From Escherichia phage AV103: a stretch of DNA of 39,735 nt. Each line of letters starts with the position of its first letter. Within the stretch, counting starts at the first letter, position 1. The stretch is taken from the sequence record OR352934.1; one strand, 5' to 3'. Shown here in pieces: positions 2,268 to 38,262 of this stretch. Position numbers and translations under genes: made by a program. The notes beneath the pieces are model-generated. The model saw nothing but the letters and a program-made list of their open reading frames with translations, was not told where the DNA came from and ran no database searches.

Positions 2268-2313
2268 GACATCCATAAAGACCACTATATGTAGTGGCCT
2301 TGAGTATATCACT
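2268..2313 (-). promoter_or_regulatory. RNase III processing hairpin (R18.5-like)
   Basis: ATCCATAAAGACCACTATATGTAGTGGCCTTGAG inverted repeat, member of the recurring ATAAAGGCCAC...GACCTTGAG family. Confidence 0.5.
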
Positions 2314-12204: not shown

Positions 12205-12231
12205 AAGAAAACCCTCCCGTAGTCGTATTGT

Positions 12232-12254
12232 TCTCCCTATAGTGAGTCGTATTA
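12232..12254 (-). promoter_or_regulatory. T7 RNAP promoter (phi13)
   Basis: Reverse complement TAATACGACTCACTATAGGGAGA upstream of gene 13. Confidence 0.9.
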
Positions 12255-12284
12255 ATTTCGAGCCACCACAGGGAGAACATTTAA

Positions 12285-16638: not shown

Positions 16639-17562
16639 TCAGAAGTTCGAGTCGATTACTTTCTGTTCGACTTGACGACGATAATTGGCATCTGTGCGAT
16701 ACCGAGGGTCGCTCATAGCTTTAATCATCTCGCTACGGTCCGCAAAGCCTTCACGCTTGGTCGCCTGAGGTTTAGCCGGAATAGCACGATTAGTCACGCT
16801 ACGAGTTGGCTTACGACCGAACGCCTTAGCGCGAGACTCACCAGCCAAGTTGATGATAGCCTTAACGGTCGCTAAGTCACGATTGGTCAACGCATTGTCC
16901 AGTGACTGTGCAGCCTCAGGGTTGTGCGTCTCAAGGTGATTGTACAGTGCGTCAAAACGCTCACGACCGCCAGCGTACTCAATGACACTGTTTACGTACC
17001 GCTCCACCAGAGCCTCTTGACCACGAATGTATGAGTCAATGAAAGCCTTCGTGTAGCCAATTTCAGCCAGCTTAGCGTAGGACTCAGCGGACAACTCTTC
17101 GTTCTCCTCGTACTCACGCTGGATGGCCTCTATGGTCTCAACACTCATGCCACGCTCGGCAGCAATGTTAATCATCTCTTGGAAGCCCTCTTCGTGCTCG
17201 CCAAGTTGCTCAGAGGCGGCTACCAGTTCTTCTGGAGTCTCACCCAGCGGGGTAAACTCCTCGGAACCTTCGGTGTCATCAGCGCCTTCTTCACCAGTGT
17301 CCACATCGGTCGGCTCAGAGCCATCCCCAATGCGAACCTGAATGCGGCCTTCGTCATCCTCTTGACCGAATGGGTCAGAGTTGTCGTACAGGTCACGTTC
17401 TGTTTCCACTTCGTCGGACGCTAACTCGATTGCATCATCGCCATCACGGGCAGCAACATCAAGAGCCAGCATGTTCTGCTCATGTTCCTCAACGGAACCA
17501 CCAGACATCACAGCGGAGTTCACGCCAAAAGATGCATATACGTCTGCATTAGATTCAGCCAT
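16639..17562 (-). CDS. 9: Capsid assembly (scaffolding) protein, 307 aa
   Basis: 307-aa highly acidic ORF between portal and capsid genes; same length as T7 gp9. Confidence 0.95.
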   Translation of the reverse strand: MAESNADVYASFGVNSAVMSGGSVEEHEQNMLALDVAARDGDDAIELASDEVETERDLYDNSDPFGQEDDEGRIQVRIGDGSEPTDVDTGEEGADDTEGSEEFTPLGETPEELVAASEQLGEHEEGFQEMINIAAERGMSVETIEAIQREYEENEELSAESYAKLAEIGYTKAFIDSYIRGQEALVERYVNSVIEYAGGRERFDALYNHLETHNPEAAQSLDNALTNRDLATVKAIINLAGESRAKAFGRKPTRSVTNRAIPAKPQATKREGFADRSEMIKAMSDPRYRTDANYRRQVEQKVIDSNF

Positions 17563-17661: not shown

Positions 17662-19269
17662 AATACCCGGCTGTAGACCTACGGACTCAGCGGCAGCAGT
17701 CATAGCCTCAGGTGAAGCTGTGGCCTGCGCAGCCATACCTTGACCAAGCGCAGCAGCACCACTATCCATACCCATTTGCATAGACTGTTGAGCCATCCTC
17801 TGTTGCTTCTGTTCTTCGGTAAGAAGGATACCAGAAGTGTCAATACCGATGGCGTTAGCAATGCGCAACTTAATCATAGCAAGGTTGATGTCAGGGTCAT
17901 CACGCATAGGAGCTAGAGCAGCCCACGCAGTGACACAACGCTCCAGCTTATCGAGGTCTTGACCACGACCGATTGCTTCCAGACCTGTACTAATGGTTGG
18001 CTCTACGGCTTCCTTAGGTAACTCAGGAATCTGTTGCGTGGCTTGTAGTTGCTTCAAGAGCACTCGTACCAGAGGCAATTGTAATTCTTGAGAAAGGATT
18101 GAGTAGACACCACCTAAAGTATCTTCAAGTTCAGAAGCGACATACCGAATCTCTTCGGCGGTAACACGTTCACCTGTGCGCTGAACCGCAGAGTTCAACA
18201 TAAAGGCAAACGAAAGTCGAGCCTCAATAGCGTCACTGACAGCCTTGGCTACAGTAAAGTCTGCTTGCTTCTCCAGTTGGAGGAACGAGATGTCTTCTGG
18301 ACGACCAGTAACGAAGTCACCAGTCTGAGCTTTGGTCAGTCGGCGTGGCTGGGTGATACCAGCAGGATTCACTAAGCCGATAACCTTAGAGCTAATCATG
18401 GACATCTTGACGATAGCCTCTTGGAGATTCTCAAGGGACCGTAAGTCACCTAAGTATTCCTCAATGTACGAACGACCGTAGGATTCACCGTCCAGACGAA
18501 CCATTCGAATCGGGATGTATGGGCAAGCATCTTTAGGATACGCCCCATCGGAGCCTTGTATCTCCATACCTTCAACCTCTTCGTAGCGGAGATATTCGTC
18601 TGACTCTTCGTCCAAGTAGATGTGAGTATACACATCAATGGTCTCATCAGGTTTCTTCTCACCGCCTTGACCTTCTACAGCCTTACGGATGTCCTCAGGG
18701 AGAGCACCAAAAGCTATCTGGTCACGAGTCACCATTTGCAGAACGTTGCCGAATGCGTCTCGTTGGACCACATAAGAAGACAATCGGTACAGCTTCATGG
18801 GATTATAGTTTGACCCTTCCGGTTCAGGTAGGTACAGCAGGACATTACCAGCTACGACTAACTGTTTGAGAGCCTCAAAGAGAGTCACTCGGTAACTGTT
18901 AGACTCAATGTAGTTCATGATGATACGCTCTACCATCGAGAGACCCTCATCGACCTTAGCGAGTCCATCGGGGTCATTCAGTAACTGTTTTGCTTCATAC
19001 TCAGAGATGGTCAGCTTCATCCACGTTTGCATCGGGAAGAGAGCCAGCATGAGCTTAGAGGCCAAGTTATTGAGACCGCGAGCACCCACAGCTTGCCACG
19101 GAGTTGTGTAGTCTGTGGATGAGTTATCGGAGTCCTTAGGGAAGAGGGACGGAATGGTATACTGAGCGCAGTTTTGGGCACGAGTCTCATAAGGAGCGCG
19201 GTCGTTCTTTAATCGCTCATAGACCGACTTTGCACCTTCCTCGGCTAGACCTGTACGCTTCTCAGCCAT
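17659..19269 (-). CDS. 8: Portal (head-to-tail connector) protein, 536 aa
   Basis: 536-aa ORF MAEKRTGLAEEGAKSVYERLKNDRAPYETRAQN...; length equals T7 gp8. Confidence 0.95.
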   Translation of the reverse strand: MAEKRTGLAEEGAKSVYERLKNDRAPYETRAQNCAQYTIPSLFPKDSDNSSTDYTTPWQAVGARGLNNLASKLMLALFPMQTWMKLTISEYEAKQLLNDPDGLAKVDEGLSMVERIIMNYIESNSYRVTLFEALKQLVVAGNVLLYLPEPEGSNYNPMKLYRLSSYVVQRDAFGNVLQMVTRDQIAFGALPEDIRKAVEGQGGEKKPDETIDVYTHIYLDEESDEYLRYEEVEGMEIQGSDGAYPKDACPYIPIRMVRLDGESYGRSYIEEYLGDLRSLENLQEAIVKMSMISSKVIGLVNPAGITQPRRLTKAQTGDFVTGRPEDISFLQLEKQADFTVAKAVSDAIEARLSFAFMLNSAVQRTGERVTAEEIRYVASELEDTLGGVYSILSQELQLPLVRVLLKQLQATQQIPELPKEAVEPTISTGLEAIGRGQDLDKLERCVTAWAALAPMRDDPDINLAMIKLRIANAIGIDTSGILLTEEQKQQRMAQQSMQMGMDSGAAALGQGMAAQATASPEAMTAAAESVGLQPGI

Positions 19270-20279: not shown

Positions 20280-20534
20280 TCAATCCTCCCCATCATCTCT
20301 TAGTTGTTCCTTGCGTAACTCAATCTCATCAATGACGTTAGAGGCATACTGTAGGCCCTGAATGAAACCCAAGATGTGGGCTTCACTACAACCATTAGCA
20401 CGCATAAGTCCTATATGACCAGACGCTTCGAGATACGCATAGTTGAATCGAACCTGTAGATACTCAGCGGTTGCACGAGGCACATCTGGAATATCGTTAG
20501 GGTTCTTAAGTAATTGGTTAATAGGTGTTAACAT
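20280..20534 (-). CDS. 6.5: Gene 6.5 protein, 84 aa
   Basis: 84-aa ORF immediately downstream of phi6.5. Confidence 0.8.
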
Positions 20535-20570
20535 GATAAAGATTCCTCTTAGAGTTAAATCTTAAAGTAA

Positions 20571-20645
20571 TAATCATAAAGGCCCCTATCTCCCTATAGT
20601 GAGTCGTATTAATTTAGGGACCTTGAGTTTATCACTTAGTGTCGT
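20571..20645 (-). promoter_or_regulatory. RNase III site (R6.5-like) enclosing the phi6.5 promoter
   Basis: ATCATAAAGGCCCC...GGGACCTTGAG inverted repeat flanks the promoter sequence. Confidence 0.5.
20589..20611 (-). promoter_or_regulatory. T7 RNAP promoter (phi6.5)
   Basis: Reverse complement TAATACGACTCACTATAGGGAGA. Confidence 0.9.
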
Positions 20646-20745
20646 GTAACGACTTGATTACTAGGGCTAAGTCCCAAAGGCCCAACGAAATGATGCACGT
20701 TCCGAGAGCACAAATAATAATGCCAAGCCACTCTATGGTCTCCAC
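20632..20745 (-). CDS. 6.3: Gene 6.3-like small hydrophobic protein, 37 aa, GTG start
   Basis: GTG at 20745 preceded by AAGGAGA with 7-nt spacer; translates (M)ETIEWLGIIICALGTCIISLGLWDLALVIKSLHDTK; overlaps the gene 6 stop as T7 6.3 does. Confidence 0.5.
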   Translation of the reverse strand: METIEWLGIIICALGTCIISLGLWDLALVIKSLHDTK

Positions 20746-25022: not shown

Positions 25023-25459
25023 TAGAGTTCTCCTTTAAGATACCTTATGGCATTCTCCAACCTATCTGTAGAATCGAAGAATTTACCTAAACCAATATTG
25101 CAGTGCCAGCATAATAGCCCACGAACTTTCAGAGTTAAATGGTCGTGGTCAATACAGGCTACCTTATGTCTCTCGGATGAGTGTGCCATTATAGCGTCTC
25201 CACATATCTTACACCTCCCTCCTTGCGAGTTCCATAATTCCTCATACTGCTCTACTGTCAGGCCATACTTCTTGATTTGAGATTTACGAGAACTCCACCT
25301 ATGGGCCTCTCGCTTCTCAGCATCATGCTTATGGTATCTCGCATTGTTATCTTTACGGACGCACTCTTTACACCAAGTTCTAAGACCGTCCTTCATGCGG
25401 GAAGCCTTACCGAACTCGGAGAGCGGCTTTCCGTTCCCACATTTAGAACAAATCTTCAT
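25022..25459 (-). CDS. HNH / endonuclease VII-family protein with N-terminal CxxC zinc finger, 145 aa (putative free-standing homing endonuclease)
   Basis: MKICSKCGNGKP...WCKEC... then CKICG...CIDHDHLTLKVRGLLCWHCNIGLG, resembling T4 endonuclease VII; SD GGAGGTGG; stop overlaps polymerase ATG. Confidence 0.75.
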   Translation of the reverse strand: MKICSKCGNGKPLSEFGKASRMKDGLRTWCKECVRKDNNARYHKHDAEKREAHRWSSRKSQIKKYGLTVEQYEELWNSQGGRCKICGDAIMAHSSERHKVACIDHDHLTLKVRGLLCWHCNIGLGKFFDSTDRLENAIRYLKGEL

Positions 25460-25462
25460 GCC

Positions 25463-25485
25463 ACCTCCTATAGTGAGTCGAATAG
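25463..25485 (-). promoter_or_regulatory. T7 RNAP promoter (phi4.7-like)
   Basis: Reverse complement CTATTCGACTCACTATAGGAGG directly upstream of the 145-aa HNH ORF. Confidence 0.7.
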
Positions 25486-25488
25486 TAT

Positions 25489-25525
25489 TCATGAAGGCCA
25501 CCACTTGGGCGACCTTGAGGATACC
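25489..25525 (-). promoter_or_regulatory. RNase III hairpin (R4.7-like)
   Basis: AAGGCCACCACTTGGGCGACCTTGAG inverted repeat between gene 4.5 and the phi4.7-like promoter. Confidence 0.45.
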
Positions 25526-27792: not shown

Positions 27793-27824
27793 TCAACAAT
27801 GAGAACAAAGGGAAACCGTTGTGG

Positions 27825-27847
27825 TCTCCCTTTAGTGAGTTCAATTA
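27825..27847 (-). promoter_or_regulatory. T7 RNAP promoter (phi3.8) with GGGAGACCACAACGGTTTCCC leader
   Basis: Reverse complement AATTAATTGAACTCACTAAAGGGAGACCACAACGGTTTCCC, directly upstream of gene 4 here. Confidence 0.85.
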
Positions 27848-32327: not shown

Positions 32328-32366
32328 TAAATGACTAAGGCCACTCAATGAGCGACCTTAAGCATT
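32328..32366 (-). promoter_or_regulatory. RNase III hairpin (R1.3-like)
   Basis: AAGGCCACTCAATGAGCGACCTTAAG inverted repeat. Confidence 0.5.
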
Positions 32367-32904: not shown

Positions 32905-32948
32905 TCAATCATAAAGGCCACTCTTGCGAATGACCTTGAGTTTGTCCC
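32905..32948 (-). promoter_or_regulatory. RNase III hairpin (R1.1-like)
   Basis: AATCATAAAGGCCACTCTTGCGAATGACCTTGAG between the two phi1.1 promoters. Confidence 0.55.
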
Positions 32949-35639: not shown

Positions 35640-35700
35640 TCCGGTTAGTAAATCGTATCTATTCAGGCCACCCTCAGTCAGATGACCTGTAAGATAAGAC
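35640..35700 (-). promoter_or_regulatory. Possible RNase III site (R1-like) in the 0.7 to gene 1 spacer
   Basis: Imperfect inverted repeat CAGGTCATCTGACTGAGGGTGGCCTG; weak. Confidence 0.3.
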
Positions 35701-37087: not shown

Positions 37088-37135
37088 GATAATCATAAAG
37101 GCCACTCGCTAGGAGCGACCTTGAGCCTATCACTT
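37088..37135 (-). promoter_or_regulatory. RNase III hairpin (R0.5-like)
   Basis: AATCATAAAGGCCACTCGCTAGGAGCGACCTTGAG. Confidence 0.55.
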
Positions 37136-37679: not shown

Positions 37680-37726
37680 CTAATCATAAAGGCCACGCAT
37701 CGTGCATGACCTTGAGTTTAACACTT
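37680..37726 (-). promoter_or_regulatory. RNase III hairpin upstream of ocr
   Basis: ATCATAAAGGCCACGCATCGTGCATGACCTTGAG; near-duplicate of the hairpin upstream of the SAMase gene. Confidence 0.55.
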
Positions 37727-38214: not shown

Positions 38215-38262
38215 AATATCATAAAGGCCACGCTTTAAGTGCGACCTTGAGTTATTCGCTTA
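38215..38262 (-). promoter_or_regulatory. RNase III hairpin (R0.3-like) upstream of the first early gene
   Basis: ATCATAAAGGCCACGCTTTAAGTGCGACCTTGAG. Confidence 0.55.

Follow-up and report, generated by a model that had tools for sequence, protein, structure and literature searches.

Class III promoter phi6.5 of Escherichia phage AV103 in the apical loop of a predicted RNase III hairpin, the counterpart of R6.5 in phages T7 and T3

We propose that the region between genes 6.3 and 6.5 of Escherichia phage AV103 very probably carries a T7/T3-type RNase III site, R6.5, whose apical loop is the class III promoter phi6.5. The window, i.e. the whole stretch of DNA that was analysed, is the 39,735-nucleotide record OR352934.1. 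A first-pass annotation made from its letters had placed phi6.5 inside an RNase III-type hairpin at 20571-20645. This assignment is borne out by the sequence, the predicted fold, the homology with T7 and T3 and the covariation across genera, and the span is correct to within a few bases. The core reading is thus supported, cleavage by RNase III in AV103 being presumed from homology. The arrangement is one that has already been described, so that our finding is a rediscovery of the T7/T3 R6.5 site with its nested phi6.5. In T7, the host RNase III cleaves polycistronic transcripts at hairpins that are conserved, and several of these hairpins coincide in part with phage promoters.

Results

Organisation of the region between genes 6.3 and 6.5

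Relative to a T7-like genome (Teseptimavirus), the window is given as the reverse complement, and transcription runs from right to left in window coordinates. When the whole window was searched with the 23-mer consensus of T7 promoters, allowing up to three mismatches, nine occurrences were found, 9/9 on the minus strand; a looser scan yielded 17 phage-type promoters, again all (17/17) on that strand. As all phage-type promoters lie on the minus strand, this strand is the transcribed sense strand, on which the RNA has to be read. The 600 bases around the phi6.5 locus share 94.8% identity with T7 and 95-97% with other Teseptimavirus phages, and the left 25 kb of the window is 92-95% identical to the nearest records.

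The ends of the window are devoid of a terminal direct repeat. The minus strand starts about 80 nt ahead of a promoter at 39656-39634, and the next promoter, at 38717-38695, follows with a spacing of 939 nt, which matches the distance between phiOR and phiOL in T7 once a terminal repeat has been collapsed. From the missing repeat and the promoter spacing, the sequence looks like a circularly permuted assembly and not like the packaged linear genome.

The promoter (Table 1) has the exact 23-bp consensus, points in the direction of the genes, stands upstream of the late gene block, as expected of a class III promoter, and aligns to the annotated T7 promoter phi6.5 at T7 18545. The space of 97 nt between genes 6.3 and 6.5 houses both nested signals. 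By coordinate arithmetic, the leader of gene 6.5 is 60 nt long from the phi6.5 start and about 41 nt long from the predicted RNase III cut.

Read on the sense strand, the RNA presents in order AAGUGAUAA / ACUC / AAGGUCCCUA / AAU + promoter / UAGGGGCCUU / UAUGA / UUAUUACUU. With ViennaRNA, the minimum free energy (MFE) and centroid structures agree on two stems, a lower one of 9 bp and an upper one of 10 bp, which are separated by a 4/5-nt internal loop and capped by a loop of 26 nt. The hairpin energy lies between -20.9 and -25.7 kcal/mol (z = -3.4), and 0-1 of 200 dinucleotide shuffles folded equally well. As modelled, this two-stem shape is the canonical architecture of the T7 RNase III substrates, i.e. 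about two turns of double-stranded RNA split by an asymmetric internal loop. The upper stem includes a U·G wobble on the minus strand, where the plus strand has an A/C mismatch at the same position. The flanking arms named in the first-pass annotation do occur, at 20573-20586 (ATCATAAAGGCCCC) and 20617-20627 (GGGACCTTGAG), but they had been quoted on the plus strand, i.e. the non-transcribed one. The Rfam scan of the whole window at the gathering threshold returned zero matches; as Rfam apparently has no family for the T7 RNase III sites, this says nothing against the assignment.

The first-pass annotation had also held that read-through RNA can fold a stem with the promoter in its loop, which agrees with our predictions: an RNA entering from upstream holds both arms and folds the site, and an RNA beginning at +1 (20594) is without the 5' arms and adopts a different predicted fold.

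Table 1. Coordinates, in the AV103 window, of the phi6.5 hairpin, its neighbouring genes and the other RNase III-type sites
Feature	Position	Strand	Basis and remarks
phi6.5 class III promoter, exact T7 consensus TAATACGACTCACTATAGGGAGA	20611..20589	minus	Exact match; predicted +1 is the G at 20594
Lower stem, 5' arm AAGUGAUAA	20629..20637	minus	Predicted folds; helix 86.5% paired across 12 phages
Internal loop, 5' side ACUC	20625..20628	minus	Conserved in the canonical sites of this genome
Upper stem, 5' arm AAGGUCCCUA	20615..20624	minus	Predicted folds and cross-genus alignment; T7 R6.5 maps to 20624
Apical loop, 26 nt: AAU and the whole 23-nt phi6.5 promoter (-17..+6)	20589..20614	minus	Predicted folds
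Upper stem, 3' arm UAGGGGCCUU	20579..20588	minus	Corresponds to +7..+16 of the phi6.5 transcript
Internal loop, 3' side UAUGA	20574..20578	minus	Predicted RNase III cut at or next to 20576/20575 (UUUAU/GAUU, slash at the cut)
Lower stem, 3' arm UUAUUACUU	20565..20573	minus	Predicted folds and alignment
Gene 6.3, 37 aa, DUF5516	20632..20745	minus	Gene upstream of the hairpin; ORF and domain match
UGA stop codon of gene 6.3	20634-20632	minus	Within the 5' arm of the lower stem
Gene 6.5, 84 aa, Pfam T7-like_Y65	20280..20534	minus	First gene downstream of the hairpin
Canonical module, R0.3 position	38224..38248	minus	Upstream of the SAM lyase gene; one of two more early sites (38248)
T3-type S-adenosylmethionine (SAM) lyase gene	38183-37728	minus	Pfam S-AdoMet_lyase, E 2e-43
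Canonical module upstream of the ocr gene	37689..37713	minus	Extra early site relative to T7; the other of the two more early sites (37713)
T7-type Ocr DNA mimic gene	37647-37273	minus	Pfam ocr, E 7.5e-45
Canonical module, T7 R0.5 homologue	37098..37122	minus	Pattern, T7 mapping and fold; T7 R0.5 maps to 37122
Divergent hairpin, T7 R1 homologue	~35664..35689	minus	T7 R1 maps to ~35689-35664; absent from the first-pass list
Module, T7 R1.1 homologue	32914..32937	minus	Between phi1.1A-like (32968-32946) and phi1.1B-like (32892-32870) promoters; T7 R1.1 maps to 32937
Module, T7 R1.3 homologue	32337..32359	minus	Variant UUAAGG...CCUUAGUC; just 3' of the phi1.3-like promoter (32388-32366); T7 R1.3 maps to 32359
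Divergent hairpin, T7 R3.8 homologue	~27807..27833	minus	Begins at most 3 nt from the phi3.8-like +1 (27830); T7 R3.8 maps to ~27833-27807; absent from the first-pass list
Module, T7 R4.7 homologue	25494..25516	minus	Variant UUCAUGA; 3' arm of the lower stem overlaps the phi4.7-like promoter (25485-25463); T7 R4.7 maps to 25516
Divergent hairpin, T7/T3 R13 homologue	~12229..12279	minus	-30 kcal/mol, z -6.6; T7 R13 maps to ~12279-12229; absent from the first-pass list
Module, T7 R18.5 homologue	2278..2301	minus	Variant AAGGCCAC/GUGGUCUU; T7 R18.5 maps to 2301

Two copies of the motif ACTYTAAGR (minus strand, 20568-20560 and 20555-20547) come directly after R6.5 and adjoin the Shine-Dalgarno sequence of gene 6.5. 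This motif, which has 14 occurrences in the whole window (1.6 expected), 13 of them on the minus strand, resembles what we take to be the 'epsilon' translational enhancer UUAACUUUAAG of the T7 gene 10 leader. Repeats like CTTTAAG/CTTAAAG precede gene 6.5 in all the relatives that we examined.

A module shared with other sites of the AV103 genome

The hairpin belongs to a family of modules. The pattern AAGGTC-N(8-38)-GGCCTT occurs seven times on the minus strand of the window, where 0.15 would be expected. Since the AAGGTC...GGCCTT core is its own reverse complement, it is uninformative as to the strand. The longer and asymmetric pattern CTCAAGGYC...GGYCTTTATG has six copies, 6/6 on the minus strand, against an expectation of 0.00. 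At 20627-20575, the shared sense-strand module CUCAAGGUC ... GGCCUUUAUGAU is matched exactly. The first-pass annotation had listed seven further copies (2268, 25489, 32328, 32905, 37088, 37680 and 38215), all of which proved to be real, each coordinate falling 5-10 nt to the left of the module core. All seven have the same predicted two-stem shape, with z values from -3.1 to -5.5.

In addition, three divergent hairpins correspond to T7 R1, R3.8 and R13 (Table 1), so that the result includes a full map of 11 RNase III-type sites for this genome. The R13 hairpin is a second case of a promoter within a hairpin, with the difference that phi13 is base-paired and not looped out: the phi13 segment -9..+9 (promoter 23-mer at 12254-12232) makes up the 3' arm of a 17-bp stem. 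Four further hairpins adjoin or overlap promoters, namely those of R1.1 (32968-32870), R1.3 (32388-32337), R3.8 (27847-27807) and R4.7 (25516-25463). Promoter-linked sites thus account for 6 of the 11 RNase III-type sites, a linkage that is annotated in T3 too. Furthermore, the phi17 transcript would have a stable 5' stem-loop, GGGAGAGG...CUUCUCCC, which starts from +1 (window 4945-4900, minus strand) and is like the R3.8 hairpin in kind.

In the early region, the SAM lyase and ocr genes are in tandem, and a separate canonical RNase III hairpin stands ahead of each. According to the annotated records, this early position is occupied by ocr in T7 (gene 0.3) and by the SAM-lyase type only in T3, whereas AV103 possesses both; this duplication accounts for the one extra early processing site relative to T7.

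Comparison with R6.5 and other sites of T7 and T3

We take T7 R6.5, together with phi6.5, to cover T7 nucleotides ~18500-18578 and its RNase III cut to be at T7 18563 (Dunn & Studier 1983). The 201 nt around T7 18563 are 97% identical to the window, and T7 18563 falls on window position 20576. Ten T7 RNase III coordinates (Dunn & Studier 1983) were mapped onto the window in this way: all ten fell on or next to a site-type hairpin, and for 8/10 the place within the canonical module was the same. In the copies of the T7 records V01146, NC_001604 and AY264774 that were examined, only promoters are annotated, and no RNase III feature.

The AV103 element occupies the same 6.3/6.5 locus as T7 R6.5 and has the identical promoter 23-mer, both stems identical and the same internal loop but for one base. 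This base, a U in AV103 and a C in T7, is the sole substitution of the element and lies 5' of the presumed scissile bond, where the cut context reads UUUAU/GAUU here and UUUAC/GAUU in T7 (slash at the bond); the U matches the consensus of the other sites.

The T3 record NC_003298 carries a stem_loop feature, 'RNase III recognition site R6.5' (17135-17206), with 'T3 promoter phi6.5' (17160-17182) nested inside. This site resembles that of AV103 in its intergenic position, its two-stem architecture, its internal loop and a promoter lying fully in the loop. It differs in that the loop is the T3-specific promoter AATTAACCCTCACTAAAGGGAAG and that the upper stem, AAGGCUCUCU/AGAGGGAGCCUU, bears several compensatory changes relative to AV103. 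In the same T3 record, R13 (25443-25480) contains phi13 (25457-25479), and R1.1, R1.3 and R3.8 overlap the ends of their promoters. R13 of T7 and T3, which is present in AV103 and annotated in T3, also has a class III promoter within an RNase III hairpin. It differs from R6.5 in that the promoter forms the 3' arm of a single long stem, without the CUCAAGGUC/GGCCUUUAUGA module.

A further comparison is provided by T7 R1.1, which has served as the standard model substrate in work on E. coli RNase III (Nicholson laboratory). It has in common with the AV103 element a lower stem, an asymmetric internal loop, an upper stem AAGGUC.../...GGCCUU and, on the 3' side, UUUAU/GAUU, but its apical loop counts 4 nt and it is located between two promoters, not around one.

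As to published work, R6.5/phi6.5 has been named as a T7 pair of cleavage site and promoter in which the start site is upstream of the cut, in a paper that also reports the processing of T7 polycistronic RNAs by RNase III, citing Dunn & Studier 1983 for it (PMC6938266). Judging by its position and its sequence homology with the T7-group RNase III sites, the AV103 element is the counterpart of T7/T3 R6.5.

Conservation and covariation of the hairpin among Studiervirinae

With gp6.5 alone as the query, the search for related loci retrieved close relatives only (17 loci, 78-100% identity). For the comparative set, we took the 200 nt that precede gene 6.5 in 12 Studiervirinae phages, found with tblastn and gp6.5 in the phage collection, where 1,209 records contain gp6.5, and in T3, T7 and the window. 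Of these 15 sequences, the window being one, 14 have a long hairpin with the phi6.5 promoter in its apical part, and the lower-stem, internal-loop and upper-stem layout is common to most of the 14. The hairpin was found in the genera Teseptimavirus, Teetrevirus, Berlinvirus, Helsettvirus, Przondovirus, Minipunavirus, Ningirsuvirus, Pifdecavirus, Pektosvirus and Kayfunavirus. The sole exception among the 15 is Pseudomonas phage Ghual01, where no obvious two-stem hairpin appeared in the ~200 nt ahead of gene 6.5; Ghunavirus, the hosts of which are pseudomonads, may have lost the element or replaced it. In all five phages with depositor-annotated promoters (T3, Kvp1, K11, fPS16 and EcoDS1), the promoter is inside the predicted hairpin. 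The loop sequence varies with the specificity of the polymerase (T7-, T3- and K11-type promoters), and the stems remain complementary.

Covariation was measured on a MAFFT alignment of 12 phages (~9 genera) that was made without regard to structure and in which pairs were then counted. Standard pairs fill 93.2% of the cells, compared with 79.4 ± 1.7% in the shuffles, none of which (0/500) reached the observed value. The upper helix is 100% paired in the 12 phages, and 6 of its 9 pairs have changed on both sides, i.e. in a compensatory manner. The covariation score is 0.415 versus 0.182 for the shuffles, and was likewise reached by 0/500 of them, and the pairing drops to 41-60% when the 3' partner is slid by 1-3 columns. 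The G·U wobbles occur on the sense strand only, with UG in 7/11 and 4/11 sequences at two positions. Since the alternation of G-C or A-U with G·U, seen at several positions, works only in the sense RNA, it argues against a palindrome at the DNA level and indicates that the structure acts as RNA. The base pairing is kept by selection at the RNA level.

Discussion

The preceding observations can be set against three other explanations. A DNA-level inverted repeat, i.e. a cruciform or a protein-binding palindrome that modulates phi6.5 activity or replication, would account for arms that form an inverted repeat bracketing the promoter exactly. We nevertheless consider it very improbable, because the pairing is strand-specific: in a cruciform, as on the opposite strand, the wobbles seen here and in the relatives would be A/C mismatches. 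Moreover, the flanking CUC and UAUGAU motifs are found on the sense strand only, the stem and internal-loop module recurs at seven sites that have no promoter inside, and the T3 record labels the element as an RNase III site. The hairpin might also be a conserved RNA structure that serves independently of RNase III, as a pause or attenuation signal for T7 RNA polymerase or as a block to exonucleases, cleavage being incidental. The stability and conservation of the hairpin are in keeping with this idea, as is the reported growth of T7 on RNase III-deficient hosts (PMC6938266), which implies that the phage gains a modest or conditional fitness advantage from the cut. Three points nevertheless make it improbable: no U-run follows the hairpin, which is therefore unlike an intrinsic terminator; a mere block to exonucleases would need no conserved asymmetric internal loop; and the sequence and geometry of this loop are shared with the homologues of T7 R0.5, R1.1 and R18.5. 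These three sites are mapped RNase III cleavage sites of T7.

The complementarity around the promoter might, lastly, have arisen by chance, and enclosure of a promoter by base pairs is indeed weak evidence when taken alone, such pairs being common at other promoters and in shuffled flanks. We counted the MFE pairs that enclose the promoter in 118-nt windows for all 17 promoters and discarded this measure, which fails to single out phi6.5: many promoters have 12-19 such pairs, shuffled flanks average 9-14, and the 20 pairs of phi6.5 are reached by 21% of the shuffles. As the enclosing pairs are uninformative, the case rests on the module statistics, the homology and the covariation. Against chance stand the recurrence of the module (6-7 copies for 0.00-0.15 expected), the covariation score that 0/500 shuffles attain, and the conservation of the arrangement in ~10 genera with different promoter sequences. 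The probability left to chance complementarity is practically nil, as module recurrence and covariation effectively refute it.

To the sequence, fold, recurrence, homology to T7 and T3, covariation and promoter position established here, the proposed working of R6.5 as an RNase III site adds cleavage by RNase III, a cut position and effects on RNA stability, which we infer from T7 biology. No terminator for the phage polymerase appears to lie between the site and the class II promoters upstream of it, so that polymerases starting there would read through phi6.5, and the read-through RNA, holding both halves, would fold into the two-stem hairpin. The host RNase III would then cleave this RNA once, the alignment to T7 18563 placing the cut at about 20576/20575, in the 3' side of the internal loop. 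The upstream message, ending with gene 6.3, would keep a protective 3' hairpin, and the downstream message, from gene 6.5 onward, would begin with a 5'-monophosphate leader of ~41 nt. An RNA initiated at phi6.5 (+1 at 20594) would possess the 3' arms only, form no site, escape cleavage, and retain its 5'-triphosphate and a 60-nt leader. The apical loop is ignored by RNase III; it is therefore free to carry the 23-bp promoter, which offers the simplest account of how the two signals can nest in the short 6.3/6.5 space. As regards the proposal of the first-pass annotation that 3'-end formation of the upstream messages is coupled to initiation of the 6.5 transcript, the two do share a location, but we found no sign of a mechanistic link: cleavage and initiation take place on separate RNA molecules, so that the 'coupling' is one of co-location only.

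It is possible, though we hold it to be rather unlikely, that the nesting serves beyond compaction, the loop promoter having been kept in at least nine Studiervirinae genera to yield two chemically distinct populations of late mRNA. The covariation and the predicted escape of the primary transcripts are consistent with this two-population proposal. If it were true, the uncut triphosphate RNAs and the RNase III-cut monophosphate RNAs would decay at different rates, and the phages would thereby possess an inbuilt means of moving genes 6.5-10 from expression by class II read-through to class III expression.

Our finding matters chiefly for annotation, in that a textbook element of T7 gene expression was re-identified from raw sequence. 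To this the map of the 11 sites and the covariation make modest additions: the covariation shows that R6.5 with the promoter in its loop has been kept in ~9-10 Studiervirinae genera, the promoter specificities of which differ.
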